The position numbers and the translations under genes were made by a program. This document shows, in pieces, positions 15,552 through 55,561 of a stretch of DNA of 64,000 bases. Every line of letters starts with the position of its first letter. The first letter of the stretch is position 1. Source of the stretch: an uncultured Poribacteria bacterium (GTDB lineage Bacteria > Poribacteria > WGA-4E > WGA-3G); the NCBI GenBank assembly GCA_951813565.1, contig OX638351.1, forward strand, positions 288,001-352,000, written 5' to 3'. The notes beneath the pieces are model-generated. The model did not search any database, had not been told where the DNA came from, and saw nothing but the letters and a program-made list of their open reading frames with translations.

Positions 15552-15989
15552 ATGCAATTATCCGCCAAATTAAAATATGTAGTTTGTGCTATGTTGGAAC
15601 TCGGTCTGCAGTATCGTAAAGAGTTCGTTTCGGTCACGGTGTTGGCTGAAAAACGCCGTATTCCAGGTCCGTTTTTGGAAAAACTTCTTTTACAACTCAA
15701 AGGTGCTGGGTTAACTACAAGCCGCCGTGGTCCTGACGGTGGGTATAGTTTAGCGCTACCTCCAGATAAAATACGGATAGGTGATATCTTTGCTGCTGTA
15801 GAGGGTCCCGTTGATTTCACAAAAGGTTTTGAAACACAACAATCGTCTGAAATTGGGACTTTTTTCGCTGAAATTGAGGAAGAGGTCCGCGATGTATTAA
15901 ACACAAAAACCCTACATGAACTCTGTTGTCACGCGCGTAAATTTAAACAGTTGTCGCAACCGACACATTCACATCTGTTCTTTATATGA
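15552..15989 (+). CDS. Rrf2 family regulator, CymR-like
   Basis: LEKLL..LK.AGL..SRRGPDGGY.LA; lacks the IscR three-Cys cluster motif; overlaps the cysK start (ATGA). Confidence 0.85.
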   Translation: MQLSAKLKYVVCAMLELGLQYRKEFVSVTVLAEKRRIPGPFLEKLLLQLKGAGLTTSRRGPDGGYSLALPPDKIRIGDIFAAVEGPVDFTKGFETQQSSEIGTFFAEIEEEVRDVLNTKTLHELCCHARKFKQLSQPTHSHLFFI

Positions 15990-16936
15990 GAATCGCTACA
16001 AACCTGACAAAACTTATCGGGAATACGCCGATGGTTCGCCTGAATGCGTTGCCAGAGAAAGAGGATGCCACTATCTTTGCAAAGTTAGAATCCTACAACC
16101 CCGGTGGTAGCATTAAGGACCGTATTAGTTATGCAATGGTCATTGACGCTGAGGAACGTGGCATCCTAAAACCGGGTGATACTATTGTTGAACCAACAGC
16201 TGGCAACACAGGCATCGGTCTTTCTATTGTTGGGGTAGCACGTGGTTATCAAGTAATTTTGACAATGCCAGAGAACGTTAGTAGCGAAAAATATGCGCTC
16301 CTGTCTGCGTTTGGTGCTAATATTGTGCTTACACCGGAACATGGTGGTATGGCAAGTGCAATCTGGGAAGCCGAGGAAATCCTTCGACGAAATTCACGAC
16401 ACTATATGCCGAACCAGTTTACGAATCCCGCGAACCCACGGATCCATCGTGAGACGACTGCTGTTGAAATTTTGGATTCTGTAGGAAGTAATATTGATTT
16501 TGTTGTTGTTGGGGTAGGAACAGGAGGAACGTTAACAGGTATTGGCGAAGTCCTTAAAGCACAAAATCCGAAGACAAAAGTCGTTGCTGTAGAACCTTTG
16601 GTGTCATCTGTACTTTCAGGAGGAATGCCTGGACCGACACGGATTGATGGGCTTGGCGCAGGTATGGTGCCTGAGGTCTTAAATGTAGACATCGTTGATG
16701 ATGTCATTGCGGTTTCTGAAGAAGTAGCGTATCAAACCATGAAAGATATTTCAAGAAAAGAAGGTTTGTTGGTGGGTATGTCGTCTGGCGCAAATGTACA
16801 TGCAGCATTGCAGGTAGCTAAAGCACAGGGACCTGATAAAACTGTCGTCACCATTCTCCCAGATACGGGTGAACGTTACTTCAGTTTAAGCCGCTATTTT
16901 GAACTTGAAACCGATATAATGGAGACACTACCATAA
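15986..16936 (+). CDS. cysK: Cysteine synthase A
   Basis: KLESYNPGGSIKDR (PLP Lys), EPTAGNTG, GVGTGGT, PDTGERY. Confidence 0.92.
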   Translation: MRIATNLTKLIGNTPMVRLNALPEKEDATIFAKLESYNPGGSIKDRISYAMVIDAEERGILKPGDTIVEPTAGNTGIGLSIVGVARGYQVILTMPENVSSEKYALLSAFGANIVLTPEHGGMASAIWEAEEILRRNSRHYMPNQFTNPANPRIHRETTAVEILDSVGSNIDFVVVGVGTGGTLTGIGEVLKAQNPKTKVVAVEPLVSSVLSGGMPGPTRIDGLGAGMVPEVLNVDIVDDVIAVSEEVAYQTMKDISRKEGLLVGMSSGANVHAALQVAKAQGPDKTVVTILPDTGERYFSLSRYFELETDIMETLP

Positions 16937-16962
16937 AAGGAGTCTAAACAGGAAAAAACGGA

Positions 16963-17721
16963 ATGGCATTTCAAATTGAAACTGCTTCAGTGATGAAATT
17001 GAAACAGCAAATTAGCTTAAAAGAGGACCCGCAAGAAATCCTTTTCTGCCTCTTTAAGCAGTTTAATGATCGCGCAGCTATTGTGACAAGTGGTCAGTTG
17101 TCGGGCATGGTTCAGATACATCTCGCCGCTGAAAGTAAATTACCTTTTAGGGTGTGTACGATAGACACACATCGTCTCTTTCCTGAAACCTATGCCTTCT
17201 TTGATCAAGTTGAAGAACGTTACGGTATTGAGATTGAACGCATCCAACCAGACACTACTGAAGTAGAAAAAATGGTTGACGAACATGGTGAATACCTCTT
17301 TTTTGACAGCAAGGCAAAACAGAAGTATTGCTGTGACATTAGAAAAATTAGGCCGATGCAACGACTTTTAGAGACGTTAGATGTTTGGATTACTGGAACA
17401 CGGAGAGATCAATCCGAAACCCGTCAAAATTTTCAGAAGACAGAAATCATTTCATCTAATACGCATCCTATCCTTAAAGTAAGTCCACTGATACATTGGA
17501 CAACTGAAGATGTGTGGAATTTTGTGCGTGAAAATGATGTACCTGTGAATCCACTCTTTAAACCGGATGCTAATGGGCACTATTATGATTCACTCGGATG
17601 TATGATCTGTTCGACGCGAATCCGACCGGGTGAATCTAAACGTGCAGGTCGATGGCGTTGGCAAAACGCAACAGACACTGAGGAAAACGACAAAGAGTGT
17701 GGGTTACACTACGCTATTTAA
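16963..17721 (+). CDS. cysH: APS/PAPS reductase (Fe-S, APS-type)
   Basis: CCDIRK and CMIC cluster ligands, WITGTRRDQS, RAGRW, C-terminal ECGLH. Confidence 0.88.
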   Translation: MAFQIETASVMKLKQQISLKEDPQEILFCLFKQFNDRAAIVTSGQLSGMVQIHLAAESKLPFRVCTIDTHRLFPETYAFFDQVEERYGIEIERIQPDTTEVEKMVDEHGEYLFFDSKAKQKYCCDIRKIRPMQRLLETLDVWITGTRRDQSETRQNFQKTEIISSNTHPILKVSPLIHWTTEDVWNFVRENDVPVNPLFKPDANGHYYDSLGCMICSTRIRPGESKRAGRWRWQNATDTEENDKECGLHYAI

Positions 17722-17815
17722 CACTAAACAAAACGGTGGATTTCTTAACCACCATTACACTATATTTCCACAAGCAGCACGACGTCAGAACTCTGACCCG
17801 ATAAAGGAGAAAAAA

Positions 17816-18103
17816 ATGGCTGTAATAGTTCGTATTCCAACCCCGCTGAGACGGTTAACACAGAATCTCGCGGAGGTTGAAACTGAAGGCACAAATATTG
17901 AAACCATCATCGAAAATTTGGAATCAGACTATCCTGGGATGAAAGAACGTCTTTGCGATGAGGGCGGGAACATCCGTCGGTTTGTAAATATCTATCTCAA
18001 TGACGAAGATATTCGTTTTCTTGATGGAAAAGCAACACCTGTCACTGATGGTGCTGAAATATCAATTATTCCCGCTATTGCTGGCGGCACACTATTTTCC
18101 TAA
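17816..18103 (+). CDS. MoaD/ThiS/CysO-like ubiquitin-fold sulfur carrier with C-terminal extension (AGG-TLFS)
   Basis: ATG 17816 after AAGGAG; VRIPTPLR, RRFVNIYLNDEDIRFL, IIPAIAGG. Confidence 0.9.
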   Translation: MAVIVRIPTPLRRLTQNLAEVETEGTNIETIIENLESDYPGMKERLCDEGGNIRRFVNIYLNDEDIRFLDGKATPVTDGAEISIIPAIAGGTLFS

Positions 18104-18176
18104 AATGGCATTTCGTGTAGGGCGGATATCCCATCCGCCCGCATACGATTCGCATATTTAATTCTTAATAAATGAT

Positions 18177-18890
18177 ATGGTAACGCTACTACCGAAAACC
18201 TTCAATGAGATATGTGCACATGCAAAGGCACAATTTCCTGAGGAATGTTGTGGTGTAATTTTGCAGGCAGATACACAAGAGTTTGTGAGACCGTGCCGAA
18301 ATATCCAAAACGAAATGCATAGGGATGACCCTACCGCATATCCGCGTGATGCACGCACAGCTTACATAATGCATCCTGATGACCTAATTTCTGTGCATAA
18401 AGAGGTAGAAACACAGCATCGTCCGATTAAAGCGTTTTATCATTCGCATCCGAACCATGAGGCATACTTCTCTGAAAAAGACAAATCGGACGCGATGGTA
18501 TGGGGTGAACCTGCATATCCAGGAGTGGTATATCTCGTCATCTCAATATACGAAGACACAATCCGCATTGTCAAGGCTTATGCTTGGGATGAAGTTAAAT
18601 CTGATTTTATTGAAGTTGTGGTTCAAAAGACTCCATCAGGAGCGATGCAAACAGCCTCTTTAAAGGTACGTCTAACCTTTCCACCTGAAAAAATCACTGA
18701 ACCTATAATTTATTACATTGGACAACAATTCCGTGTGGTCACCAATATCCGCCGCGCTAACGTAACTGAAGAATCGGGTTGGGTCATGTTAGAAATGAGA
18801 GGTGCTTCAGATGAAATTGAACGCGCTATTGATTACCTAAAAAACATCAAAGTCCAAGTTGAACCTGTTGAAGGTGATGTTGTCCAATAA
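18177..18890 (+). CDS. JAMM/Mov34 (M67, Mec-like) metallopeptidase fused to a C-terminal NIL domain
   Basis: PEECCG...YHSHP......SEKD JAMM motif; C-terminal RLTFP...EPII...VVTNIRRANV...GWVMLE.RG....I..AI.YL. Confidence 0.85.
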   Translation: MVTLLPKTFNEICAHAKAQFPEECCGVILQADTQEFVRPCRNIQNEMHRDDPTAYPRDARTAYIMHPDDLISVHKEVETQHRPIKAFYHSHPNHEAYFSEKDKSDAMVWGEPAYPGVVYLVISIYEDTIRIVKAYAWDEVKSDFIEVVVQKTPSGAMQTASLKVRLTFPPEKITEPIIYYIGQQFRVVTNIRRANVTEESGWVMLEMRGASDEIERAIDYLKNIKVQVEPVEGDVVQ

Positions 18891-25888: not shown

Positions 25889-26332
25889 CTATCGGTCCCC
25901 TTTATTTGCAAGCGATTCTATCTGTTCTACTGCTGTTTGTGCACCCTCCCGCACGAGTGCAGAGGAATCATTTTGTGCCAGTTGTTTGAGTTTGTTTAGG
26001 CAAAGTTTTGCCTCCAATTTGCCAAGTGCTACTGCTACGAAATAACGGACATCCGCGTCCTCATCATCAAGTGCTTCCAGCAATGTTTCCGTATCCGAAG
26101 GGGTGGCGAGGTGCCGTTCCACATCACCGATATTGATCAATGATTGTGCTGCAATGCGTCGAGAGTGGATATCACCATGACGTAAGGACGCAAGTAATTC
26201 GTCATTGCCGGTGCCAATCGTCTTAAGAGTATCCCAATCACAATCCAAGCAGAACCATGAATTCGCATCTAACTGCTGGACGTTCCTTTTACCGCACTTA
26301 GGGCATTCCCCATACCCTTGTTGTTGATTCAT
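25889..26332 (-). CDS. HEAT-repeat protein with N-terminal Zn ribbon
   Basis: CPKCG...CLDCD; ALDDEDADVRYFVAVALGKL, DSSALVREGA; ATGA overlap with the upstream gene. Confidence 0.75.
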   Translation of the reverse strand: MNQQQGYGECPKCGKRNVQQLDANSWFCLDCDWDTLKTIGTGNDELLASLRHGDIHSRRIAAQSLINIGDVERHLATPSDTETLLEALDDEDADVRYFVAVALGKLEAKLCLNKLKQLAQNDSSALVREGAQTAVEQIESLANKGDR

Positions 26333-26703
26333 GATGGACCTATTGCCTCCATTTCTGGTAAATCTCGCCATATCTCTGGACCTTCTGGCTTGAAATTAAT
26401 TGTCGCAATGAACTGCATACCATGATAAAAGTTGATTTTAAACTTTCCGCCGCCAAAATTTTGTTTGAGATAATCTAAAGGTGCATCAATCAATGGACCC
26501 ATTTCGTCAGCATAGTAGAAAGCAAGTGGTTTGAACCTCACGGTGTTTCCTACAGGCTCCTGCACTAACAGTTGGGCGGAAGTAGCAGGAAAGAGCATTT
26601 GAAAAGCATCCCACAGGTCAGCGACAGTAGGATTCGGATTTCCGATTCGCTTTTTGAAATCATTCTCAAGATATTCAGAAAATGTATTAAAAACCCAGTC
26701 CAT
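26329..26703 (-). CDS. Hypothetical protein
   Basis: Co-oriented open frame translationally coupled to the HEAT gene; no family recognised. Confidence 0.65.
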   Translation of the reverse strand: MDWVFNTFSEYLENDFKKRIGNPNPTVADLWDAFQMLFPATSAQLLVQEPVGNTVRFKPLAFYYADEMGPLIDAPLDYLKQNFGGGKFKINFYHGMQFIATINFKPEGPEIWRDLPEMEAIGPS

Positions 26704-26744
26704 GATTAGTGTCCTGTTCAAGTTACCGATGGAATTTCAAAGTG

Positions 26745-27518: not shown

Positions 27519-27932
27519 TCAGAACGTGGCAGCATTTTCAAAGAACTCAATATCCACACGTTCAATTTGTGCGGAACGCGCATTCTCTGCCACACGTTGC
27601 ACAACCATCTCCCGCACAAATGGAATGGGAATGCGTTTTACGCGATGCACTACTTCTTCCGTACAAGGCACATTGGTATTGTCAAGAAAAGGACCGTCCT
27701 GTGCCGCTGCTTCTGCGGGATGATCGCAGGTCTCAGGTACAAGTTGCTGTAAACGCATTGAGACGTAATCGGTCACCCACTGTTGAAACTTTTCGGTGTT
27801 TTCAGATTCTGCAACATTGGATTGTGGTGTCTGTTCCAACTTTTCATTGATGCTGGTAAGCAGGTTTTCCAAACGTGCCAAACGGTCTTCAACACTCGTC
27901 AATCGTTCTTGAACGTTAGTTTGCTCGCTCAT
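27519..27932 (-). CDS. Coiled-coil protein with C-terminal PCP_red-like domain
   Basis: CTEEVVHRVKRIPIPFVREMVVQRVAENARSAQIERVDIEFF. Confidence 0.7.
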   Translation of the reverse strand: MSEQTNVQERLTSVEDRLARLENLLTSINEKLEQTPQSNVAESENTEKFQQWVTDYVSMRLQQLVPETCDHPAEAAAQDGPFLDNTNVPCTEEVVHRVKRIPIPFVREMVVQRVAENARSAQIERVDIEFFENAATF

Positions 27933-27941
27933 GTTTCCTCC

Positions 27942-28661
27942 TTAAATTACCCAGTATTTCCATAGGTCTTCCGGAATTTCGTATCTAATTTCTTCACGCT
28001 GTTTATGATGATAGCGTGCAAATATGCCGACGCGTGGAATATCTCTGATATTGCCAGAACCCGTATGGCACAGATATGCGTGCCATAGCACAACATCCCC
28101 TGCCGCGCCTATAAACTCTCGTGGTCCTTCTGGTGATGAATCTGAAAAAACATTCCAACCCCACCCTTCAATATCCCTAAAACTACCATCAACCTGTTCA
28201 GGATATTTGAGGAAGTATTCATGTGTTGTGTGATGGCTCTTGGGCCAAAAGACGAAAGCCCCACCGCCAGGTTCTACATCGTATAGATAGGTTGTTGCCC
28301 CCATCATAAACGGACTCCAACCGCCAGGGCCGTAGGCATCAATGTGTCCACTACCCGGCATAGACCATTCTGCATCCGGATTAGGCCATTTCACAAGTGG
28401 GGCACCGCCTCCACCTGCAAACTCACCGCCACCGAGTTGATTAATAATCGCTTGCATAGCAGGCAATTGTCCAAAGTTTGGAGAAAAACCGAAGTTTTCT
28501 ACCACGTAATTGTCAGGCCATGTCTCTGGAGTCTCCAAACTGGAATTGAAATGCTTCCAAATTTGTTCCCGCCACCCATCAATTACATCTGGATCGATCG
28601 AGTTTTCAAGGATAAGGTATCCGTTTTCTTGAAAAGATTCCACCTGTTTTGTTGTTAGCAT
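27942..28661 (-). CDS. Phytanoyl-CoA dioxygenase (PhyH) family Fe/2OG oxygenase
   Basis: LT..QVE.F.ENGYL, HID, GG....PKSH, AGDVVLWH..L.H. Confidence 0.85.
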   Translation of the reverse strand: MLTTKQVESFQENGYLILENSIDPDVIDGWREQIWKHFNSSLETPETWPDNYVVENFGFSPNFGQLPAMQAIINQLGGGEFAGGGGAPLVKWPNPDAEWSMPGSGHIDAYGPGGWSPFMMGATTYLYDVEPGGGAFVFWPKSHHTTHEYFLKYPEQVDGSFRDIEGWGWNVFSDSSPEGPREFIGAAGDVVLWHAYLCHTGSGNIRDIPRVGIFARYHHKQREEIRYEIPEDLWKYWVI

Positions 28662-28732
28662 ACAAGTTGCCTCTATTGTTAAATGTAGAAATCGGGATTA
28701 CAAATCCCTCCTACAGAAGAAGATACAAAAGT

Positions 28733-30037
28733 CTAACGCCGCGGTCGAAAAGAGGGAATGCCAGTTTTGTCAAACCTCTCTTTGACTGCTTTCATAAGTT
28801 CAGGCGTTATTTCGCGATAACCGTGTTCACGAGCGTATTTTTCAACACTCTTGACAACCATGCCACGTGCAAATGACGGAACGCGCTTTAATCTCGCTTC
28901 CGCCGCCTCATTCCACTGCAAATCGTAATCGGGTTCTGACGCGAAAGCAGTTCGTTTCTCAAGTTGAACAGGTTGTTGTCCTTGCTGCCTTGGTTGATAT
29001 TCACAAGACTCATCTGCGGCAAGGTAGTTGCCGGTAGTGGCATAAGCACGTGCTCTACATCCACCACACACCTCTCTAAATTCGCACGCACCACATTTAC
29101 CCTCAAGCATATCCCGATTTCGCAAGTCATGGAAAGTTTCCGATTCATTCCACAGTTTGACAAAACTCTGATCTTTGAGATTACCAACACTGACAGGTAG
29201 ATACGGACACGGCGTCAGTTCACCTTCGGGACTGATGCGACAATAATAGATACCGCAAGGACACGTACCACTCGGATAACCTTGCAGGAACGCTGAATCA
29301 GACTGCTGTTCATAGATAACGCGTTTGTAGTGTGGCGCGCATTTCGCAGCGATGAGCATCTTCCCGCTGTATTCTGCTTGTAGTTGGAACATTGTCTCAA
29401 GCATCTTTTCATATTGCGTTGGGGTAATGTCCATTACTGTTTTGCCTCTCCCAGTACGCACGAGAAAATAGAGGTTTAACACCTTCGCTCCCAACTGATA
29501 GGCAAATTCCACAATCTCAGGGATTTCATCGTAATTCCACTGCGTTACAGAGGTTTGGACGAGAAAATCAAGTTGTGCGCGCTTGAGTGCTTCAACACCG
29601 TTCATTGTCGCTTTCCACGCGCCTTCCATCCCACGAAATTTGTCGTGATCTGATGGTTGGATAGAGTCAATGCTTAACCCTGCCCCCGTAACACCGTTCT
29701 GTTGCATCTTCTCAACCACTTCGTCATTGAGTAAAACACCGTTTGTTCCCATCACAACAAGAAATCCTGTGTCTGAAGCGTATTTTGAAATCTCCAGAAT
29801 ATCGGGACGCAACAGCGGTTCACCACCCGTGAGTATCAGCAGAATATGTGGATTGATTTCGGCTATCTCATCAATGACACGGAAACACTCTGATTGGCTT
29901 AACTCTGTATCTCTATGATAACCTTGCGGGAACTCGTCTGTGTCAACAAATCCTGCAGGAAGATAGCAGTGCGTACATTTCAGATTGCACAATCGGGTGA
30001 TATTCCATGAGACTGCCTGAACTTTGGTTTTTTCCAT
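28733..30037 (-). CDS. Radical SAM/SPASM protein (NirJ/AhbC/AhbD-like) with C-terminal PCP_red domain
   Basis: WNITRLCNLKCTHCY, TGGEPLLR, KCAPHY, CPCG...PCPYL...KCGACEFREVCGGCRARA; tail WNEAAEARLKRVPSFARGM. Confidence 0.88.
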   Translation of the reverse strand: MEKTKVQAVSWNITRLCNLKCTHCYLPAGFVDTDEFPQGYHRDTELSQSECFRVIDEIAEINPHILLILTGGEPLLRPDILEISKYASDTGFLVVMGTNGVLLNDEVVEKMQQNGVTGAGLSIDSIQPSDHDKFRGMEGAWKATMNGVEALKRAQLDFLVQTSVTQWNYDEIPEIVEFAYQLGAKVLNLYFLVRTGRGKTVMDITPTQYEKMLETMFQLQAEYSGKMLIAAKCAPHYKRVIYEQQSDSAFLQGYPSGTCPCGIYYCRISPEGELTPCPYLPVSVGNLKDQSFVKLWNESETFHDLRNRDMLEGKCGACEFREVCGGCRARAYATTGNYLAADESCEYQPRQQGQQPVQLEKRTAFASEPDYDLQWNEAAEARLKRVPSFARGMVVKSVEKYAREHGYREITPELMKAVKERFDKTGIPSFRPRR

Positions 30038-30306
30038 TTATTGTCAAACCTATAATTACGAATCTGATTGCCTCGGTTTTCAGATATTTACATTCCGCCC
30101 CTACGGGGCTAAAGACGTGAGACTACACCGTTCTATAAACATATTGTCCCTACGGGACTTTAAGGTATCTTACAATTGCCAATATACTGACGATCCCCGC
30201 CTTACAAACACTAAATCAAGCAATGCGCGGACGGCACGCGGAGCGTGCCTGCTACCATGTGTATACTTATTTTGGACGCCACCATAATTCTCAATAGCAA
30301 CGCGAA

Positions 30307-30765
30307 TTAATTTCTCAATAACAACGCAAACGCGAACACAATTAATCCTGAAAAAAGCGTTAAATGTCCAAAAACATTGATATGACGAGGAACGATAACT
30401 CTGCTATCTGGTTGTGCTGTCTCAAGGTACCGCCTATAGAATGAACTGTATAGTCCCCAAAAGAGTGCCATCAATCCGAATGCTGCTAACTTTGCAGCTG
30501 AATATATCATATACTCCGATTTTAATTCCATATTACTATTCCATGCAACGATAAAAATTACAATCCCGCCTGTTAATAAAAGCATGTTAATCATCAATCG
30601 TATCCAGTGGCGAAATCGATTGTGAATCTCTAATAGGTCTTGCGCTGGTAGATTTTGCCGAACAATTGGCATTGCAATCAAGGTTGAAAAAACAACACCT
30701 CCAAACCAGACTATCGCTGCAATAAGATGGAGACTTCGGAGGAAAAGTTCTACAAACGTTCGCAT
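30307..30765 (-). CDS. Four-TM membrane protein, CopD/DUF4149-like
   Basis: RSLHLIAAIVWFGG N-terminal motif; four hydrophobic helices. Confidence 0.6.
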   Translation of the reverse strand: MRTFVELFLRSLHLIAAIVWFGGVVFSTLIAMPIVRQNLPAQDLLEIHNRFRHWIRLMINMLLLTGGIVIFIVAWNSNMELKSEYMIYSAAKLAAFGLMALFWGLYSSFYRRYLETAQPDSRVIVPRHINVFGHLTLFSGLIVFAFALLLRN

Positions 30766-30807
30766 AGTTTGTTTTTTGCTGGATTTGCCTTACAATTAGG
30801 TATGGGA

Positions 30808-31297
30808 TTATACACCCCCACATTTCTCATAAAAGTTCACCCCAACACGTTCAATTTGCGCAACCATATCAGGATTTCCTATCTTGCTGAAAACGGATAG
30901 ATCAATCGTATAAGGTAAAAGCAGATCATCAAGATCAGTGTCAATTTTAGTGAATAAGTACGCTGTGCGTTAATCCCTCACCACAGACGGTTAGGTCAAT
31001 GTCGGATCCGTTTCTATAGGTGCTTGTAGCGCGTGAGCCGTCCAAAATCGCCTTTTCTACTTGTGGATACTGCTTGAAAACACCGTGTATTTTTTCAATA
31101 GTCTTGTCTGATAAGCCGTATTTCATAGCGACTCTTCTTGTTTTATGTGTTCTATTTTTGTCAATAACGTCTCAAAGTGCTTCTAAATCTGAAAGTTTTC
31201 GTTGTTTTGCGAGTTCCACTGCTTCTTTTAGTCGGGAAAACGCTTTTCGAAAACTATCAGCCTTCTGTGTCCAACGGATGTTTGGATGATTCATCAT
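30808..31297 (-). pseudogene. Decayed HEPN (HI0074-like) + minimal nucleotidyltransferase pair
   Basis: 31297: MMNHPNIRWTQK...RLKEAVELAKQRKLSDLE, then an apparent internal deletion. 31126: MKYGLSDKTIEKI...GSRA..TYRNGSDIDL, then a frameshift to DLDDLLLPYTIDL...IERVG. Confidence 0.75.
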
Positions 31298-31342
31298 GAG
31301 CGATCTTTTTATTGGTCCCAAAAAATTGTGTTGAATAGGCTA

Positions 31343-32104
31343 TTACGAGCGTGCTTGCAAGTGCTCAAGTTGTTCTCGGAGTTGTGCGACTTCCGCTTCT
31401 GCTTTCTCTCGTGCTGCGGCTTCCTGTGCTGCGCGTGCTTCAGCGGTTTCCGCACGTGTTGTTTCCTTCTGTCGTTCAGTGGCTTCTTGTTCTGCACGTG
31501 CTTCAGCGGTTTCCGCCCGTGTTTTTACCCACTCACTCGCAACCGGATCATAGATACCTATTTCCTGATCCCTTATGCGGAAATCTAAGCCCAGAGACGA
31601 TGAACGAACACCACCATTTTCATCTGGTTGAACTTCTACATAGACACCATTAACTAACTCAAAACCTATCAGTTGTGATGGCAAATACAGCCCCTCCGCA
31701 TCATACAAGAAATAGTTCTGTATCTCAAGAGAGGCATAAATTTCCATCTTGTCTGTTAAGTCGTTTTGATATGTGTTTTTGCTGCTGAACTCCATCACAA
31801 ATTCTGGCACTTTCCCCTCTTCCCAGACCAAGTATGTCCGCCTTGCCTTCATTCCTATTCCGAAAGAGACAAGAACATCTGGAGATATAGACTTATTAGG
31901 TGAACCTTCTACATAATACATCAGAATATCACCAGAGATATAGACAGATGGGTTATGTGAGAAATGTGCCCCAAGTGCTTCTAATGTCCAAAACAACTGA
32001 TGCCTGTGAAGATCGCTTGCTGCCATCGGTTTTCCATCCTCTTCAGGATACAGTACATCTGTGGGGACATAAGAGACATGGTCCTTTTTTGTGTCGGTTG
32101 CCAT
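31343..32104 (-). CDS. Uma2 family endonuclease with repetitive coiled-coil tail
   Basis: YPEEDGKPMA, SPDVLV, PEFVMEFSS, NYFLYD; TRAETAEARA twice (63-bp period). Confidence 0.88.
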   Translation of the reverse strand: MATDTKKDHVSYVPTDVLYPEEDGKPMAASDLHRHQLFWTLEALGAHFSHNPSVYISGDILMYYVEGSPNKSISPDVLVSFGIGMKARRTYLVWEEGKVPEFVMEFSSKNTYQNDLTDKMEIYASLEIQNYFLYDAEGLYLPSQLIGFELVNGVYVEVQPDENGGVRSSSLGLDFRIRDQEIGIYDPVASEWVKTRAETAEARAEQEATERQKETTRAETAEARAAQEAAAREKAEAEVAQLREQLEHLQARS

Positions 32105-32217
32105 AATGTTTCTCCTTTACCAAAAGATGCGTGAAAACAGAGGTTAAGGTTTTTAGTTCTATCTATAGTGTGCCTTAATTATAGCCGAAAACAAGGAGGG
32201 TATCAAGCATTTATGGT

Positions 32218-32742
32218 TTAGAACTGTGCGGGGAAGTTCCCGCGCGCAGCATCCATCACTTCGCCAGTAATCTCGGTATGTCCATTATCTTTGGCAAAAC
32301 TTTCAATACCCATCTTTGCCATCGGACGGACAAAACTTGGGATACGTTCTAAACGTTCTAACGCCTCAGGTGTCCATGTGAGACCATCAGGCTCAGATTC
32401 TGGTTTTTCTTCAAATGCGTCCGAGATGACAGACGTAAACGGACATTTTCCGCCCTCAGCCGTTTCTCCTGATCCCATTTCTGACGCGATGTTTGGCATT
32501 GAATCCTGCTTTGCAGTCTCTAACTGTGAACGGACCATCTGCATCGGTTGTGCCGCTTCACTGTTACCGCCGAGTTTCAGGTCCAAGGATTTTAACATCT
32601 GTGTTTCCGATGGATTGAGGTACATCGCTATCTCAGTAAAGCAGTCTGGACATTCAAATACAGCAGTAACAGACCCCTGTTCAGGACGGGTTACGTCTTT
32701 AAATTTCATTGCTGTGTCGCAGTCTATACATAAGAATTTCAT
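32218..32742 (-). CDS. Zn-ribbon (CxxC...CxxC) protein with C-terminal PCP_red domain
   Basis: MKFLCIDCD...FECPDC; KCPF; WTPEALERLERIPSFVRPMAKMGIESFAKDNGHTEIT. Confidence 0.78.
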   Translation of the reverse strand: MKFLCIDCDTAMKFKDVTRPEQGSVTAVFECPDCFTEIAMYLNPSETQMLKSLDLKLGGNSEAAQPMQMVRSQLETAKQDSMPNIASEMGSGETAEGGKCPFTSVISDAFEEKPESEPDGLTWTPEALERLERIPSFVRPMAKMGIESFAKDNGHTEITGEVMDAARGNFPAQF

Positions 32743-32880
32743 CGTTTAATCTCCAAATTTTTCGAAACCGAATAGTAACTTTCTATGTATTCCTTCATTT
32801 GTAGTAGCGTAATTTATCACACCTTGAACTTGTGGACGGCACGCGGAGCGTGCCTACTACTTTTAAGAGTACCTCATCAG

Positions 32881-33762
32881 TTATGTCTTGAAGAAATCTT
32901 GAATCTTATGTGCCACCTCTATAATCGCTTTGCTTGCGGGAGTTTCAGGGTGCTCATGAACATAAGGCGTACCGCTGTCGCTACAATGTGATAATTTTGG
33001 ATCGAAAGGGATTTTGCCGAGCGTAGTTAACTGAAACACATTATCAGGTGTCCCTTCAGCAGAAAAGAGCGGTTCGTGTTCACCACAATGTTTACACACA
33101 TAGAACGCCATATTTTCTACAATGCCGATAACCGGCACCTTGAGGATGTCTCTCGCCATCGTTATAGATTTTTTGACAATCAGGTGTGAGACTTCGGAGG
33201 GAATTGTTACGACAACCACGCCACCGAGATTTGGGATGAGTTCAGCCACATTCGGCAAACGATCAGAACCTGGTGGCAGGTCAAGCAGAAGATAATCCAA
33301 TTCTCCCCATTCAGTGTCGCCGATGAACTCCCGCAGTGCACCAACCTCCATTGTGGAACGCCATGTGAAAGCATCCTTTTGTGTGTGTGCATTCCACAGC
33401 ACTGGGGCATCATCTTCAGATAAGAGCAGATCCATTGAAATGATTTTTGTGCCGCGGGAACTAATTGCCGGTTTGACACCTGTAGATGCGTACTCAAGCG
33501 TTGTGTTGCGTACTCCCATCATTTTGGCAATCGTTGGGCCGTTGATGTCCGCATCTACAATACCGACAGCACACCCCGACAGCGTCAGCGCGGTAGCGAG
33601 GTTAGCGGTGATAGCACTCTTGCCGACACCGCCTTTTCCACTCATAATAGCGACAGTATTTTTCACCGAAGCGAGACGTTTACTAAGGCGGTTCGCTTGT
33701 GCAGTTACTTGCCCGATAATGTTGGAACCGGCATCATCCGGGAGTTCCTTGAAACTTTTCAC
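32881..33762 (-). CDS. Mrp/NBP35 (ApbC) Fe-S cluster carrier ATPase
   Basis: SGKGGVGKS, DADINGP, WGELDYLLLDLPPG, ENM...CKHC. Confidence 0.92.
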   Translation of the reverse strand: MKSFKELPDDAGSNIIGQVTAQANRLSKRLASVKNTVAIMSGKGGVGKSAITANLATALTLSGCAVGIVDADINGPTIAKMMGVRNTTLEYASTGVKPAISSRGTKIISMDLLLSEDDAPVLWNAHTQKDAFTWRSTMEVGALREFIGDTEWGELDYLLLDLPPGSDRLPNVAELIPNLGGVVVVTIPSEVSHLIVKKSITMARDILKVPVIGIVENMAFYVCKHCGEHEPLFSAEGTPDNVFQLTTLGKIPFDPKLSHCSDSGTPYVHEHPETPASKAIIEVAHKIQDFFKT

Positions 33763-35033
33763 TTTTTCTGGCCGATGGCATACAAGGCGTCATAACTACG
33801 CAAGTAGAGAACTCCATCCGCAATTACAGGCGATGCAGCGACGGTTTCATCAATTGAATTGGTGGCCAGGATTTCAAATTCTCGTCCCGCCTTAACAACA
33901 TTGACAACACCATTTCGAGATGTTAGATAGATATAACCGTTTGCATAAACGGGAGAAGAACGGTGTAGCTGACGGTTTATTCGCATTTCATAGAGTTCTT
34001 CCCCTGTTTTCGCGTCAAGGCAGATAAGGATACCTTTTTCCCGGCACAGATAGACTAAACCGTCATGGATAAGCGGAGATGGCACGTCCGGTGTGCCTTC
34101 TTGAAGTTTCCAGATTTGCCATTTGGTGTCTGTTATATTACCTGTTCCCGATGGGTCTAAACCTAAGACAGGTCCGTTTTTGGCTGAAGGGACGACAATA
34201 AGACCTTCTGTTACTACAGGAGAAGCCACAAGTCGAAACGAAGGATTATACCATTCTGGTGGATTCAAGCCACCACATCGCCAAATTTCGCTGCCATCTT
34301 CAAGATTATGTGCCGTGACATAGTCAGCACCATGCACAACAAGGAATTCACGTTCCGCATCACGATAAAGAATTGGGGATGTATAGGCGTGTTCACATTC
34401 TTTCCTCGCATCACTTTTGCGGTCATGTTTCCAAATCTCTTCACCTGTCATCTTGTTAAGTGCAAGAACTAACCATGCGTTGCTATGAATAAGTTGAAGG
34501 TATAACCTATCTTTGTCCAGCACTGGTGACATAGACATCAGGAAGCCGAGTCTAAACTTGCCGTAACGTTCCTCCAAATTTGTTTGCCATACGGGATTCC
34601 CCTCAATGTCGTAGCAAGCCAGGTCACCTGTTCCGAGAAACGCCCAAACATGTTTACCATCAGTAGTAGGAGAGGGGGCAGCAAGATTTACTTCATCGCC
34701 GCGTTTAGAACGGTTACCTTGTGCCAACGTGCGTTTCCATAGTTCCTCACCTTCGGTACTGACACACATCAGAACAAGTTCGCTTCCATCAGCGGATGTC
34801 AGGAAAATCTTATCTCCCCAGACAACGGGAGTGGAAGCCGCTTGACCGGGCAGCGGTAAACGCCAACGGACGTTCTCAGTCTGGCTCCACTGGATGGGCA
34901 CATCAGTTTCATTACTGATTCCGTCGTTGTTTGGGCCTCGCCATTGGTGCCAGTTTTCGGCGAAACCGTTGTTGATTAGAATTAGAGACGCAAATAGGAA
35001 AATTAATAGGTTGCTGACAATATGTTTTTGCAT
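33759..35033 (-). CDS. Secreted PQQ-like beta-propeller protein (BamB-like repeats)
   Basis: NWHQWRGP, STPVVWGDKIFLT, repeated SP..DG..Y blades. Confidence 0.85.
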   Translation of the reverse strand: MQKHIVSNLLIFLFASLILINNGFAENWHQWRGPNNDGISNETDVPIQWSQTENVRWRLPLPGQAASTPVVWGDKIFLTSADGSELVLMCVSTEGEELWKRTLAQGNRSKRGDEVNLAAPSPTTDGKHVWAFLGTGDLACYDIEGNPVWQTNLEERYGKFRLGFLMSMSPVLDKDRLYLQLIHSNAWLVLALNKMTGEEIWKHDRKSDARKECEHAYTSPILYRDAEREFLVVHGADYVTAHNLEDGSEIWRCGGLNPPEWYNPSFRLVASPVVTEGLIVVPSAKNGPVLGLDPSGTGNITDTKWQIWKLQEGTPDVPSPLIHDGLVYLCREKGILICLDAKTGEELYEMRINRQLHRSSPVYANGYIYLTSRNGVVNVVKAGREFEILATNSIDETVAASPVIADGVLYLRSYDALYAIGQKK

Positions 35034-35133
35034 GATTAATCTCCATTTTCAGCGAACCTTGTTGAGGTCCGTTGTAGTATAGTGTGACGCTGTGTTTCTT
35101 GAATAGCGATCAATTATTTACGCTATTACAAGG

Positions 35134-35562
35134 TTAACGATTCTCATCCGTCCATAAGCCTCTATCTTGACCGTTCCACTGGTAAGGAACTATTTTTGAT
35201 AGATCTCCAACGTTGTACTCAGGGAACTTATTCCCTGCCTCTATAACATAACCTTCGTTTGTAAAAATAGGGAATTTAAGTTTGGTGAGGGTGTCAACAG
35301 GTTCGATTTCCAACCACACGTCAAGATCACCTACCACTGTTTTAAAAAATAAGTCAGCAGAATGGCTTTCATGTTTCAGAATCATGATGACACCAGATTG
35401 CTTAACTTCTCCATTTGACGAACGTACTTTCAAACCTACAACGAGATCTTCTGATGGCGGCGGATATGATTTTAACTTAAACCACAAGCCTTGACTTGAT
35501 CCCTCTGCTGCGCCTTCATTCGGACCAAGTATCTGAAAAGTAATTGTCGGAATATCCACCAT
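35134..35562 (-). CDS. Hypothetical protein
   Basis: Co-oriented 142-aa frame with AAGGTG RBS; no family recognised. Confidence 0.5.
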   Translation of the reverse strand: MVDIPTITFQILGPNEGAAEGSSQGLWFKLKSYPPPSEDLVVGLKVRSSNGEVKQSGVIMILKHESHSADLFFKTVVGDLDVWLEIEPVDTLTKLKFPIFTNEGYVIEAGNKFPEYNVGDLSKIVPYQWNGQDRGLWTDENR

Positions 35563-35575
35563 ACTTCACCTTGTT

Positions 35576-37492
35576 TTAGCTGTCTTGATTATTCTCATTG
35601 TTTGATTGTTGGTAATACTCACCGAGTACTTCATTGGCAAGGCTTCTACCATCTTCAATAACGCGAGCAGCAAAATCGAGCGTAACTTGCGTAATACCTG
35701 CCTCTTGCGCGCGCTGTTCAATCCGTGTTTGGGTGATATTTTGCATAAAACCAACAGGGACTAAATTCAACCGGTCTACTGCATCTTCTGTCCATTCAAG
35801 GATACTTTCAATATTTACTGTTGTCTCAGTGCCTTGAGATTCAGTTTGCGCTTGCATGGCTCTAAGTTCAGGAGCATCTTCACGAACAGCTGCTGCTTCA
35901 CCCATGCTGTCATCAATGATCTGCGTGGCAAAATCATTTGTAATTGTGGCAATCTTTTGAGATCGTGCGGATTTTTCGATCCGTGCTTTCACATTGCGCC
36001 GCATATAGCCGCGTGGCACGGTACGCAGTGCTTTCTTCGCTTGCTCAGACCATTGCAAACGGACACCATCAAAAGTTTCCTCTTCTGCAGTGCCTCCTTC
36101 GTCAACAGCGATGTGTTCAATGGAATTTTTATCGACCATCTGGAAACGTTCTGGCGGTGAACTACAAACAGGACACTTAACCGGTTGTTGATCATGTGCG
36201 GCATAGCCACATTCACCACAGATATAGGTTTGCACGTCACCTGCTTCTAATACCTTCTGTTCAGCGATCTCTTTTGCGACGCGTGTTAGTTTTTCGGAGG
36301 CGCGTTGTGGCATAATCGCTTCCATCGCTTTGTCAATAACGCTTTCGGTAATAACAGAATGCCCGCGTTCAATAGCAAAGCGGTGCACTGCAGTTTTCGC
36401 AATGCCACGCACCAATGGAGGTGCTTTCTCCATGCGATCCATTGCTTCCTGCGTCCACACAAGGGTTTCTTCTGCTTTTACATCAATTTGGGGAAAATAA
36501 CGTTGGCTTGACAGCAGCACGTTGCATGGCGCAAGGCGTAAGAGGTTTTCGGCTGTGCTGCCAATGTCCGAGTCTTGTTCATTATGGACGCCAATTCTGC
36601 CTAAAACGAGGAGCCATGGATTAGTTTTTCGGGTGTATTGAAGTATTTTTTCATAAGCCTTCCCATCAAGGAGGGTGATTTTTAGTTGATAGTCGTGATC
36701 TTCTTTAGCAATAGAACGGGCAACTTCAAGGTGTGATTGATATATTTTAGCAAGACCGGTATCTATTACTTCTTCGTGCAGCTGCTCTTGTTCTTTAAAT
36801 CTAAATGTTCTCGCGGCTCGTTCTGTTAGGACATTTACAACGGAATTAAAAACGATGTAGTGCAGATATGGATCATATACGCCTACTGCTTCAACCTGTT
36901 TATTGAACATTTGTCCAAGACGGATAGCGGTTTTTAGTCCAGAAAAAGATTCTGGACTCCCGTCAATACCGACGAGGATGTTCCCAGATTGTTCGTCAAT
37001 AGGGTCAAGGTTTCGGACGATAAGCGTATCTGTGGTAATACGCCGCACAACGCGTTCACAGACGCCACCGATTAGGCTATCCTTGACAGCACCCATACCG
37101 AGTGCGCCCATAATAACCAGATCGTAATCGCTTTCCTGAATATCCTCAACCAGTTTGATGTAGTGCTTGCCTTCAGGCATCTTCGGTTCAAAAGGAATCT
37201 CAAGCTTTTCACACTTCTTTTTCATTACCTCAAGATAGGAATCCGAAATGAGTTGGAGTCCCATGGTAATGAGCGTGTCGTGGATACGGCGCTGCTTTTC
37301 GAGTTCTACTTCGTCCTGATACTCCTCTGGCAGCGTATATTCCATCTGCTTGAAGCGTACATCGTGCATTTTTGCCGCGTAGACGTGTGATCCTACTAAC
37401 TGCGAACCGAATTTCTTAGCGAATTCAACCGCTAAACTAATACTGGCATCTGAGTAGTCTGAATTATCTACTGGCACGTAAATCTTTTTCAT
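35576..37492 (-). CDS. Tandem universal stress protein fused to PCP_red, rubredoxin-like and two more PCP_red domains
   Basis: KIYVPVDNS...DLVIMGALG...GGVCERVVR; ILVGIDGS...IGSTAENLLR; CGECG...CPVC; three W(T/S)xxAxxR...IT repeats. Confidence 0.85.
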   Translation of the reverse strand: MKKIYVPVDNSDYSDASISLAVEFAKKFGSQLVGSHVYAAKMHDVRFKQMEYTLPEEYQDEVELEKQRRIHDTLITMGLQLISDSYLEVMKKKCEKLEIPFEPKMPEGKHYIKLVEDIQESDYDLVIMGALGMGAVKDSLIGGVCERVVRRITTDTLIVRNLDPIDEQSGNILVGIDGSPESFSGLKTAIRLGQMFNKQVEAVGVYDPYLHYIVFNSVVNVLTERAARTFRFKEQEQLHEEVIDTGLAKIYQSHLEVARSIAKEDHDYQLKITLLDGKAYEKILQYTRKTNPWLLVLGRIGVHNEQDSDIGSTAENLLRLAPCNVLLSSQRYFPQIDVKAEETLVWTQEAMDRMEKAPPLVRGIAKTAVHRFAIERGHSVITESVIDKAMEAIMPQRASEKLTRVAKEIAEQKVLEAGDVQTYICGECGYAAHDQQPVKCPVCSSPPERFQMVDKNSIEHIAVDEGGTAEEETFDGVRLQWSEQAKKALRTVPRGYMRRNVKARIEKSARSQKIATITNDFATQIIDDSMGEAAAVREDAPELRAMQAQTESQGTETTVNIESILEWTEDAVDRLNLVPVGFMQNITQTRIEQRAQEAGITQVTLDFAARVIEDGRSLANEVLGEYYQQSNNENNQDS

Positions 37493-48631: not shown

Positions 48632-50347
48632 TTACGCATTTCTTTGGCGTACAAACTGTCGTAATCCGACCAACAGACCGAACGAGAGAAGTGCCACTAA
48701 CGGGGGATAAATAAATCTTCTTGATGAGGGTACAGGTTCTAATACAAAACTGTACCAACTTGAGATAACTCGTTTCGTATCAACGTCCCCATTTGCACCA
48801 TCCCATGCTGAAAAAGCAATAGGAACAAATACATCAGATTCAAGCTGCAGATCTTTCTTATCATCCGTTTTTAACGCACGTTTGACCCATAATCTGTACT
48901 GTCCATCAGTGTATTCGCTTTCTGCTTCAATGTTACCTTGGACTTCCTGAACTTCAGCTTTGTTGATGCCTTTCGCTGTGAGTTCTGTAACCTTCTCGGC
49001 ATCAGATGCTTTCCAGTGCCATAGATAGACAGGTAGTTTTCCACCCCAAAGGAAATAAGGCTTTGGTGCAGTGGGGCCCTTCGGCACTTTCACAGGAAAT
49101 TGGATTGCAATTGCGTCCTCAAACGTTGTTCCAGTATCTTCGTCCTCTTCAACTTCGGTATTATGTGTTCGGTCATCCCATGTGAAGAGGAAGGCGACCT
49201 CTGTGTCATTGTAAAATGATTTGACATTAACTGAGTCAATCGTAGGATTAAACTGCCGAGGTTCAACAATTATTTGTCCGACAAGAGGAAAGTAACTTGA
49301 TTCAAGTGTTTCCCAAGCTGCATCAGCCATCTGAGGCAACTCGCCTACTACATATTGTGACCGAAGGACGTTTTTGCCAATCGCTGGCTCCGGTCTTTTT
49401 TCAGGAGAAAGGGATTTAACATAGTTCGCCAGATGCCAACTTTTACTGTAAAACGCCTTCATGGCTGTCGCATAGGCTTGTTTCTGTTGTTCATCTGCGC
49501 TGCCTTCTGCCATAAGGTCTAAGATTTCAAAAGCATTACCCATTTTTTCATCAAGTTGATTATATTCTTCTTCCTCAGCCTCTGTCATTTCGACTTTATT
49601 GTCCAATTCGTTATAACGTTTGGATTCTTCTATAGTTAAGCCGAAAGCAGGGTCTTCAAACATGGGCATGGCGGAGCCTGCAATTCCACCGATAAACCGC
49701 TTGTAAATGTCGTCGATATCGCTACCGCCTCTGTAGTTCCAACTTTGTGTAAGATTTGCTGGCCAACTCTTGAAACCCCACTCATCTTCCAAGGTTGGTG
49801 CGGATGTGCCATCGCCACGACCTAAATTACCATGGCATTCAAAACAGGCGAATTGCGTGTAAAGCACCTTCCCAATTTCTACACTCTCTTCAGCGTAAGG
49901 AATTTTACCTTCTAAACTGATTTGGCGCGGTGGTGTTTCACTTTCTTTGAAGCCATCATAGAAGGTTTTTATGTATGCCACCACTTCCCAACGGTCATTG
50001 GCACTGAGTGCAGTTTCCCACTCTGGCATTGACGAACCGGGCATACCTATGGTAATAATATCAAATAGGTCCTGATCCGTTGGAAGTTCTCCGCTTTCTG
50101 TAGACCGAATCTTATACAACCCACGAGTGAAATCTCTTGGTTGCGGTAAAAGATTTTCTGCTGCACTACCATCCCCGCGTCCTTCCGTACCGTGGCAGTG
50201 TGCGCAACTTTCTTCATAGACCTCTTTTCCTGCAGCAACTTTTTTTGCTTCCTCGGAATCGTCTGGTGTGTCCTGCGCAAAAGTTAGGGATAAAAAAGAG
50301 AGTAGACCTAAAATAAGGATTAAGAGGACAATATTTCTGCTTCTCAT
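48632..50347 (-). CDS. Diheme cytochrome c fused to an ethylbenzene-dehydrogenase-gamma (EB_dh/DOMON-like) domain, C-terminal TM
   Basis: CAHCH and CFECH; PRDFTRG.YK.RST; F.WDD.T, DAIAIQFP, PYF, W.WK, FSAWDG. Confidence 0.8.
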   Translation of the reverse strand: MRSRNIVLLILILGLLSFLSLTFAQDTPDDSEEAKKVAAGKEVYEESCAHCHGTEGRGDGSAAENLLPQPRDFTRGLYKIRSTESGELPTDQDLFDIITIGMPGSSMPEWETALSANDRWEVVAYIKTFYDGFKESETPPRQISLEGKIPYAEESVEIGKVLYTQFACFECHGNLGRGDGTSAPTLEDEWGFKSWPANLTQSWNYRGGSDIDDIYKRFIGGIAGSAMPMFEDPAFGLTIEESKRYNELDNKVEMTEAEEEEYNQLDEKMGNAFEILDLMAEGSADEQQKQAYATAMKAFYSKSWHLANYVKSLSPEKRPEPAIGKNVLRSQYVVGELPQMADAAWETLESSYFPLVGQIIVEPRQFNPTIDSVNVKSFYNDTEVAFLFTWDDRTHNTEVEEDEDTGTTFEDAIAIQFPVKVPKGPTAPKPYFLWGGKLPVYLWHWKASDAEKVTELTAKGINKAEVQEVQGNIEAESEYTDGQYRLWVKRALKTDDKKDLQLESDVFVPIAFSAWDGANGDVDTKRVISSWYSFVLEPVPSSRRFIYPPLVALLSFGLLVGLRQFVRQRNA

Positions 50348-50348
50348 T

Positions 50349-51125: not shown

Positions 51126-51150
51126 GGGTTGTCTCCTTAGCGTTTCTTGG

Positions 51151-52665: not shown

Positions 52666-52681
52666 CGTTTTTATTCTCCGT

Positions 52682-54616: not shown

Positions 54617-54692
54617 TTTCGTTTCTCTCAATTGTTAGAAAATACCCTCAAAGGACGAAATTTGCTATCCTTTGAATAAGAAAGGTGAACGT

Positions 54693-55463: not shown

Positions 55464-55540
55464 CGTTTTTTCTCCTTATATTATTCTTGTTTATTATATT
55501 AACACCTTAAGATTTATAAAGGCAAACCCTTAAAAACAAA

Positions 55541-55557: not shown

Positions 55558-55561
55558 CGTT

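Follow-up and report, generated by a model that had tools for sequence, protein, structure and literature searches.

In a 64,000-nucleotide stretch of DNA from an uncultured Poribacteria bacterium (assembly GCA_951813565.1, contig OX638351.1, positions 288,001–352,000; hereafter the window, numbered from its first letter), a group of minus-strand genes between positions 27519 and 37492 encodes four unrelated proteins that carry PCP_red domains (PF08369), known from dark protochlorophyllide reductase (DPOR), together with an Mrp-type ATPase. The four proteins are a tandem universal stress protein (USP) fusion, a radical S-adenosylmethionine (SAM) enzyme, a Zn-ribbon protein and a coiled-coil protein. 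Our analyses indicate that these genes constitute an accessory module that was gained and lost together with a gene block for an atypical, bd-like oxidase with a CydA-like subunit, and that the module likely makes or tailors haem for this oxidase and delivers it. Direct observations are the content of genes and domains, the joint gain and joint loss, and a clade of the radical SAM enzymes that is distinct from AhbD. We consider the link of the module to the CydA-like oxidase highly probable and a role in haem metabolism moderately favoured; the complete chain from gene content to haem delivery appears evenly poised between holding and failing.

Linkage to the CydA-like oxidase

The module is part of a longer series of respiratory genes. 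Upstream on the same strand lie genes for a Rieske protein, cytochrome b, a subunit IV and a multihaem cytochrome c, followed by the bd-like block (48632–55951, minus strand), for which Pfam matches indicate a small cytochrome c, a cupredoxin-like protein, the CydA-like subunit (52682–54631, minus strand), two cytochromes c and an EB_dh haem-b protein. After this block come an ABC transporter, cox2/cox1, ctaA, cyoE, two cox3 genes, cox4 and SCO, with the module directly behind. The CydA-like protein, the putative client of the module, matches PF01654 with 71.6 bits in its N-terminal part (model positions 3–236 of 418), contains no CxxCH motif and has at least 11 hydrophobic segments. It probably belongs to the OR-N family of the cytochrome bd superfamily, which was defined by Murali et al. 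(10.1101/2021.01.16.426971) and is termed uncharacterised in the accessible text of a Nitrospinota survey (PMC10839748). As in that family, the gene for a CydA-like subunit without CxxCH shares its operon here with genes for c-type cytochromes and an EB_dh protein. No maturation factors are named in the accessible passages of the two papers, and the words 'universal stress' do not occur in either main text.

Phylogenetic profiling, which the original prediction had proposed as a check, was run within Poribacteria on 174 genomes that were at least 70% complete. PCP_red was found in 136 of 151 genomes and in 16 of the other 23, and an orthologue of the CydA-like gene in 149 of the 174. Both were present in 149 genomes and neither in 22, three genomes had PCP_red only and none had the oxidase only, demonstrating the expected co-occurrence. 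The three PCP_red-only genomes (G071, G106 and G150) are fragmented assemblies, which we did not remove from the counts. The module Mrp gene and the EB_dh gene are likewise missing from G071 and G150, and the EB_dh gene of G106 is located on a short contig, indicating assembly gaps. Since related genomes are not independent, we place the weight on two events, a loss in genome G139 and a gain in genome G154.

G139 is 94% complete and belongs to the same family as PCP_red-positive genomes. Its Rieske, cytochrome b, cox and ctaA/cyoE genes are intact, and only about 100 bases are present at the expected place of the bd-like block. Downstream, what remains of the module is a 43-residue match to the USP (88% identity), an Mrp fragment of 133 out of 293 residues, and a radical SAM gene that is frameshifted and ends at residue 230 of 434. 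Zn-ribbon, coiled-coil, CopD-like and SCO genes were not found at this locus, nor was a whole orthologue of the USP or the radical SAM enzyme elsewhere in the genome. That the USP and the radical SAM enzyme of G139 merely lack PCP_red was rejected, as both are truncated remnants. Between cox4 and the USP remnant, G139 contains a three-gene set resembling succinate dehydrogenase/fumarate reductase (L168:6977-10400).

The gain was predicted before it was found. G154 (79% complete) is the sole genome outside families f1-f3 with a CydA-like gene; PCP_red was predicted from this gene and then detected, with a USP gene and a gene for a radical SAM enzyme carrying PCP_red situated 5 kb downstream of the CydA-like gene on the same contig. 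Its congeners G104 and G155 have neither PCP_red nor the CydA-like gene, and G155 contains only a weak, different PF01654 match. The locus comprises molybdoenzyme alpha/beta-like genes, a chaperone, two EB_dh genes, the CydA-like gene (42% identity), two cytochromes c, a tandem USP (44%, without PCP_red), the radical SAM enzyme (40%, with PCP_red) and a cupredoxin-like gene, in this order. Mrp, Zn-ribbon, coiled-coil and cox genes are absent from the locus, and the only Mrp match in the genome has 39% identity and is of housekeeping type. Together, G139 and G154 indicate that the core of the module consists of the USP and the radical SAM enzyme and that Mrp is optional. The molybdoenzyme genes of G154, a class-level relative, resemble periplasmic nitrite oxidoreductase/nitrate reductase (L212:7161-19998, on G154:C25), and the locus is GC-rich and divergent from the window cluster.

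By position, the genes could also serve the adjacent aa3 oxidase or the bc complex, or be unrelated passengers of the respiratory island: the module stands directly behind SCO and the cox genes, and the USP gene is next to cox genes at two other loci (L159 and L160). However, the module of G139 has decayed next to retained aa3 and bc genes, the G154 locus has the module without cox genes, and haem-copper COX1 is present in 10 of 15 PCP_red-negative genomes tested. An affiliation with the aa3 oxidase was rejected on the evidence of G139 and G154, and we regard this largely refuted explanation as very improbable. The profile and both events support the earlier proposal of a tie to the atypical CydA-like oxidase, show this tie to be closer than that proposal could establish, and set it apart from the closest-lying aa3 oxidase.

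As had been proposed, the tagged genes form a unit, and it is conserved across Poribacteria. At 80 Poribacteria loci compared with 10 kb of flanking DNA, the order USP – beta-propeller – Mrp – Zn-ribbon protein is kept, with the Mrp and Zn-ribbon genes found at 73 loci each; 33 loci reach the radical SAM gene. One genus has kept the radical SAM and coiled-coil genes but relocated them. At L162–L164, the USP gene directly precedes CydA-like genes. In two of these (L162:9986-17541 and L164), a USP with five PCP_red domains is followed by a CydA-like gene, Rieske, cytochrome b and a second CydA-like gene, and no radical SAM gene was present in the DNA examined.

PCP_red domains and the dedicated Mrp

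The four tagged open reading frames (ORFs) lie on the minus strand exactly where the original prediction had placed them, and their recurring helical motif is indeed PCP_red, matching the tails of BchB/ChlB and the nuclear magnetic resonance domains 2KRU and 2L09 (Asr4154) by sequence. Six copies are distributed over the four proteins, and five of them individually exceed the Pfam gathering cut-off of 32.5 bits. At the protein level, PF08369 scored 100.1 bits with the USP fusion (three stretches), 63.1 bits with the Zn-ribbon protein and 58.8 bits with the radical SAM enzyme. All copies are on the minus strand, at 36326–36457 (47.5 bits), 35930–36052 (36.1 bits) and 35672–35794 (35.8 bits) in the USP fusion, at 32242–32376 (65.6 bits) in the Zn-ribbon protein and at 28781–28915 (62.9 bits) in the radical SAM enzyme. 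In the 137-residue coiled-coil protein (27519–27932, minus strand), the divergent copy at 27531–27659 reached 22.7 bits (E 1e-4), which is below the cut-off. We nevertheless regard this weak sixth copy as real, because the segment is nearly invariant in 34 orthologues; look-alike clusters of the protein in the Atlas are from Poribacteria and Rokuibacteriota. A six-frame search of the whole 5.43 Mb genome yielded exactly six PF08369 matches, all within about 9 kb of the window (27531–36457), and this clustering in one spot is not due to chance.

The fold comparison, for which the USP model alone among the four proteins was used, gave Z 9.3 for superposition on 2KRU (root-mean-square deviation (rmsd) 4.0, 63 residues aligned) and Z 8.5 on 2L09 (rmsd 1.8, 62 aligned). 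The module domain thus has the sequence family and the three-helix fold in common with these domains and with the C-terminal PCP_red of BchB/ChlB in DPOR. In contrast to DPOR, the genome has no BchN/BchB catalytic subunits, and PCP_red occurs on four unrelated proteins, with up to six copies per chain. In line with the originally stated absence of photosynthesis genes, PF00148, the family of DPOR and nitrogenase catalytic subunits, had no match in five genomes including the source genome, and a control search matched in 3 of 14. The accessible texts of the reviews and DPOR papers searched contain no description of the PCP_red domain.

The module ATPase (32881–33762, minus strand; 293 residues, PF10609 240.9 bits) is an Fe-S carrier of the Mrp/ApbC type. 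It contains the deviant Walker A sequence GKGGVGKS and a C-terminal CxxC motif, features in common with Mrp/ApbC/NBP35 carriers. It differs from them as a module-specific paralogue that has an N-terminal extension of its own and is sometimes fused to PCP_red repeats or to a split-barrel domain. A housekeeping Mrp with 37% identity is encoded elsewhere in the source genome. The module Mrp remains below the NCBIfam equivalog cut-offs for ApbC (181 of 348 bits) and MrpORP (240 of 450 bits) and below the cut-off of Fer4_NifH (16.6 of 25 bits), and by its PF10609 assignment it is no BchL/NifH-type reductase. In Poribacteria, Mrp belongs to the module as originally claimed: it decayed along with the other genes in G139, and in P0351, a single-member cluster with 6 contigs, four PCP_red repeats are fused to an Mrp of the module type.

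These two observations could also reflect a docking role of PCP_red, by which every carrier would be brought to the Mrp ATPase in the way presumed for BchB and BchL, and one Fe-S/tetrapyrrole-tailoring complex would thereby be assembled. The adjacency of the Mrp gene and the Zn-ribbon PCP_red gene points in the same direction; it was observed in 73 of the 80 Poribacteria loci, in L148, L159 and L161, and, by annotation and consecutive identifiers in the accessible data, in Nitrospira marina (PMC8115632). However, the G154 locus manages without Mrp in a genome that is 79% complete, its USP has no PCP_red, and only 3 of 80 metagenome loci have Mrp within the DNA examined. The P0351 fusion is confined to one cluster, Mrp is an Fe-S carrier family that resembles NifH/BchL only weakly, and the accessible text of the DPOR cryo-electron microscopy study describes a contact of BchL with BchB without naming the domain (PMC12022308). 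We therefore consider an obligatory docking tag unlikely. That the USP of G154 is without PCP_red and G154 is without the module Mrp speaks against a single obligatory Mrp receptor; PCP_red domains may plausibly act as small contact modules between parts of the module, with a copy number on the USP that varies from 0 to 6.

Other architectures were noted as well. A protein of about 330 residues with four PCP_red repeats is encoded in other lineages (L087:14193-15194, L088, L089 and L148); it is absent from the window and corresponds to the part fused to Mrp in P0351. Many Mrp-family proteins of 700–730 residues (P0353-P0389) contain inteins (PF14890, PF14528). An apparent fusion of Mrp with the Zn-ribbon protein (P0318) was rejected as a frameshift read-through.

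A candidate haem enzyme and candidate haem carriers

The radical SAM enzyme (28733–30037, minus strand; 434 residues) consists of a PF04055 domain, a SPASM domain (PF13186) and the C-terminal PCP_red. Its best-matching families are haem b synthase (TIGR04545, 329.6 of 500 bits) and NirJ2 (310.9 of 500 bits), both below the equivalog cut-off. In a tree of 27 rows, the 15 module enzymes group together (98/98), with AhbD-like and TIGR04053 enzymes next to this clade, showing that the module enzymes are separate from AhbD; the paralogues in this tree are from Poribacteria only and were labelled by hidden Markov model score, and the G154 branch is long. With AhbD/NirJ2 (TIGR04545, TIGR04055) and TIGR04053, the module enzyme has the CxxxCxxC motif, the SPASM cysteines and a CAPH segment in common. 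It differs from AhbD/NirJ2 by scores under all equivalog cut-offs, its own clade, the additional PCP_red tail, the USP partner and a genome without AhbC. The sole match to the AhbC family TIGR04546 in the source genome (G000) is the module enzyme itself with 130 of 650 bits (AhbA/B were not searched). HemH and a ChdC-family gene are located elsewhere in the source genome, and bulk haem b therefore has another route. No solved AhbD or NirJ structure came up with which residues could be compared; among solved structures, PqqE, SkfB and anSME are the closest.

A more conventional interpretation of these data is that the enzyme is an oxygen-independent coprohaem decarboxylase, an isozyme of AhbD/ChdS that tops up haem b for a low-oxygen oxidase, with the other proteins as helpers and no new cofactor. 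The best-matching family and the sister position to AhbD-like enzymes are consistent with an isozyme, as are its status as sole AhbD-like enzyme of the source genome and the position of a ChdC-family gene directly after the cluster in G003 (L201) and G139 (L180:1670-3099). Moreover, G139 lost the module enzyme while owning another AhbD-like enzyme (490 of 500 bits). On the other hand, module enzymes score 300–330 of 500 bits, far under the equivalog cut-off, compared with 430–490 for the paralogues; G154 keeps its radical SAM enzyme despite an AhbC-like gene on another contig; and the loss in G139 left every other haem protein of the locus in place. In the accessible proteome data of N. marina, the probable counterpart, a SPASM enzyme of 460 residues, is expressed and is not induced at low oxygen (PMC8115632). 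On balance, an isozyme that merely supplements haem b seems distinctly unlikely. DUF420 genes also recur near the cluster, in G139, in L148 (L148:19753-20490) and in N. marina beside a PCP_red gene for a 159-residue protein.

The second core protein, of 638 residues (35576–37492, minus strand), combines a tandem USP with one PCP_red, a rubredoxin-like domain and two further PCP_red domains, as judged from Pfam matches, alignment and a predicted model (pLDDT 91.3, pTM 0.67; predicted local and global confidence scores). Two Usp domains were recognised by Pfam and fold search, and the model has the tandem USP fold (Z 29.3 against Rv2623 (3CIS), rmsd 3.1, 279 residues aligned). Across the 80 Poribacteria loci, identity is 76–97%, exceeding that of cox1 in many loci, and nearly all of these relatives are labelled Ca. 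Poribacteria, two of them 'uncultured bacterium'. The glycines of the nucleotide motif G-2x-G-9x-G-(S/T) are kept in both domains of 62 aligned sequences (G129, G132, G142, G301 and G311 in 62/62, G298 in 58/62); position 143 is Gly here and Ser/Thr in 57 of the 62. Two pseudo-symmetric helical inserts, one per half, each contain a pair of histidines 28 residues apart, and these are likewise retained (His43 and His71 in 59/62, His211 in 62/62, His239 in 61/62). No haem-binding relative of these inserts emerged from the fold search, a result that excludes nothing. The common fold and the nucleotide-motif glycines unite the protein with the tandem USPs Rv2623, TTHA0350 and UspE, from which it differs by longer helical inserts with paired histidines, the PCP_red and rubredoxin-like tail and its very high conservation. 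The proteins P0135, P0143, P0172, P0192, P0207 and P0350 include several relatives whose USP is joined to a split-barrel domain of the pyridoxamine-phosphate-oxidase-like type, according to weak Pfam matches in two and likeness by eye in the rest, and one module-type Mrp that carries PNPOx_N. The split-barrel fold includes haem- and flavin-binding proteins.

The Zn-ribbon protein (32218–32742, minus strand; 174 residues) has two CxxC motifs and a linker ahead of its PCP_red domain. In the alignment, the linker motif GGKCPF (residues 97–102; 32437–32454, minus strand) stands out as a candidate transient haem site: CPF is present in 80 of 80 orthologue matches, and the linker is otherwise variable. 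As 78 of these are of Poribacteria type, they are not independent. CP[FVY] is also enriched in the tails of USP relatives, occurring in 18 of 150 compared with a mean of 4.5 and a maximum of 10 in shuffled sequences. In mammalian proteins, Cys-Pro motifs are described as transient haem sites in the accessible text of PMC10377097. The four USP histidines and the invariant CPF motif together suggest haem binding.

The module might alternatively mature or regulate the oxidase without making haem, either because the SPASM enzyme cross-links the CydA-like subunit or a partner protein or modifies one of its residues, or because the USP senses ATP or the redox state and gates activity. Many SPASM enzymes modify proteins, and the nearest solved structures could suggest the same here; the retained nucleotide-motif glycines of both USP domains, the rubredoxin-like and Zn-ribbon domains, which suit redox sensing, and the occurrence of USP genes next to CydA-like genes without a radical SAM gene would be compatible with regulation. 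Yet haem-type families score about three times as high as peptide-maturase families (330 bits compared with at most 156), no precursor peptide was seen, and the His and CP motifs fit haem binding, so that we judge this explanation to be quite improbable.

In the haem-related reading that we favour, the radical SAM/SPASM enzyme would act on haem or coprohaem, the tandem USP would bind ATP and hold haem by its four conserved histidines, and the Zn-ribbon protein would bind haem transiently through its CPF motif. Where present, the dedicated Mrp may load Fe-S clusters onto the radical SAM enzyme, and PCP_red domains may mediate contacts between the parts. The link to the membrane could be provided by a small CopD/HemJ-like membrane protein (30307–30765, minus strand; 152 residues, Pfam match under the cut-off). 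The gene list of the original prediction was incomplete in this respect, as it left out this regular companion of the core.

Occurrence outside Poribacteria and implications

The USP family comprises 327 representatives with E ≤ 1e-30 among 50%-identity clusters, and named members come from Ca. Manganitrophus, Nitrospinota, Mariprofundaceae and Acidobacteriota. In 31 of 150 relatives, which were scanned for PCP_red, the copy number per protein ranges from 0 to 6. We compared the best 80 of 586 metagenome loci, a sample that is redundant and taxonomically narrow, as is the Poribacteria set, and is dominated by one Nitrospira-like group. Among the 56 loci with at least 1.5 kb downstream, 48 contain the radical SAM gene and 50 the CopD-like gene; within the DNA examined, Mrp, CydA-like and Zn-ribbon genes were each found in only three of the 80. 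A plasmid collection contained generic USPs only and no module. The USP of L093 has the same architecture as the window USP and 47% identity, and the lengths and gene order at this locus match a set of N. marina proteins that are probable module counterparts. According to the accessible text of the N. marina proteome study (PMC8115632), a USP of 699 residues reached 97–132 spectral counts and the adjacent SPASM enzyme 18–44, and the USP showed a log2 fold change of -0.01 at low oxygen, unlike four stress USPs that were induced. The absence of induction applies to this one stress and to a counterpart whose orthology is taken from lengths and gene order. The same data list three expressed 'proto-chlorophyllide reductase subunit' proteins of 328, 257 and 159 residues, of which the 257-residue protein adjoins an Mrp-like ATPase of 306 residues and the 159-residue protein is two identifiers from a bd-like oxidase gene.

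Several observations weigh against a haem-delivery module dedicated to the CydA-like oxidase. In the metagenome loci, the trio of USP, radical SAM enzyme and CopD-like protein is mostly encoded away from CydA-like genes (adjacent in 3 of 80), and three loci have the USP beside CydA-like genes without a radical SAM gene within the DNA examined. Physical linkage of module and oxidase is thus not general, which counts against a purely synteny-based claim. In the Nitrospira-like group, mpqE and an slr0320-like B12 radical SAM gene frequently precede the trio (37 and 45 of 80 loci, respectively). The profile across related genomes in effect reduces to a single ancestral presence, a single loss and a single gain. 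In G139, redundancy with the second AhbD-like enzyme could explain the loss of the radical SAM gene, although not plainly that of the USP and Mrp genes. Furthermore, histidines and CP motifs that are conserved can be metal ligands or redox switches instead of haem sites, and the substrate, ligand and interactions proposed for the module are predictions. As a separate observation, USP genes after mpqE (above the NCBIfam cut-off) and the slr0320-like gene (L096:7316-9832, L115:1247-2110 and similar loci) tie the module to quinone-synthesis genes; mpqE and slr0320-like genes have been linked to methyl-plastoquinone synthesis in the accessible text of 10.1101/2024.07.27.605408.

The remaining genes between the module members are not part of the core. 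A PQQ-type beta-propeller gene and a 142-residue ORF (33759–35562, minus strand) are lineage passengers, absent from some Poribacteria and from all metagenome loci examined. A Uma2 gene (31343–32104) and nucleotidyltransferase/HEPN-type remnants (30950–31297), together at 30950–32104 on the minus strand and recognised by Pfam, are insertions. Both Uma2 and the PhyH gene (27942–28661, minus strand; Pfam) had been taken for later insertions; this fits Uma2, which is patchy among relatives, but PhyH is a family-level insertion that is not recent. Of the 33 Poribacteria loci long enough to include the radical SAM gene, 30 have PhyH at a fixed place between this gene and the coiled-coil gene, and more distant Poribacteria are without it. 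The best promoter-like site of the region is at 32206–32178; promoter-like sites and terminators overall were at chance level (39 compared with 36.4 and 21 compared with 16.8). One short palindrome (GGCACGCTCCGCGTGCC type) recurs between genes at 30230–30250 and 32838–32854 and probably represents a repetitive extragenic element. Directly after the coiled-coil gene, a 130-residue ORF of no known family (26329–26721, minus strand) is 75–98% identical across Poribacteria loci and may be a further module member; a relative (40%) is beside the USP gene in L148, none was found in the G139 locus, and Atlas matches were below 0.9 and serve as a lead only. Elsewhere in the window, a NACHT-like NTPase that contains a low-complexity region of DLYRELY repeats (12009–14366, plus strand), followed by DNA methylase fragments on the opposite strand, is a possible remnant of a defence island. 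Judged from translations, genes for an Rrf2 regulator, cysteine synthase, PAPS reductase and MoaD-like and Mov34/NIL proteins form a sulphur-assimilation cluster (15552–18890, plus strand).

Every domain of the module is known, and the module is a real, previously undescribed accessory module of a known kind, namely oxidase cofactor maturation. We found no description of it in the open-access papers searched; bioRxiv supplements, which might list the genes, were outside the scope of this search. The present analysis contributes the profile across Poribacteria, the joint loss in G139, the joint gain predicted for G154, the histidine and CPF motifs and published proteomic counts for the probable counterparts. 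In a bolder extension, which we regard as doubtful, the product of the radical SAM enzyme would be a haem variant exclusive to OR-N bd-like oxidases, which the USP as ATP-binding haem chaperone and the PCP_red-linked carriers insert; this would be the first dedicated maturation pathway for the family and common to Poribacteria, nitrite oxidisers and manganese oxidisers.

According to the accessible text of the Nitrospinota survey (PMC10839748), OR-N bd-like oxidases have been proposed as terminal oxidases in Nitrospinota and Nitrospira. If these oxidases need the module, our results would name the genes missing for heterologous expression, predict a special or specially delivered haem and make a standing question testable, with the G139 co-loss and the G154 co-gain showing that the minimum consists of two genes, those for the USP and the radical SAM enzyme. 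If true, this would also provide a first function for the non-photosynthetic branch of PF08369 and introduce a 'universal stress protein' as a cofactor chaperone.

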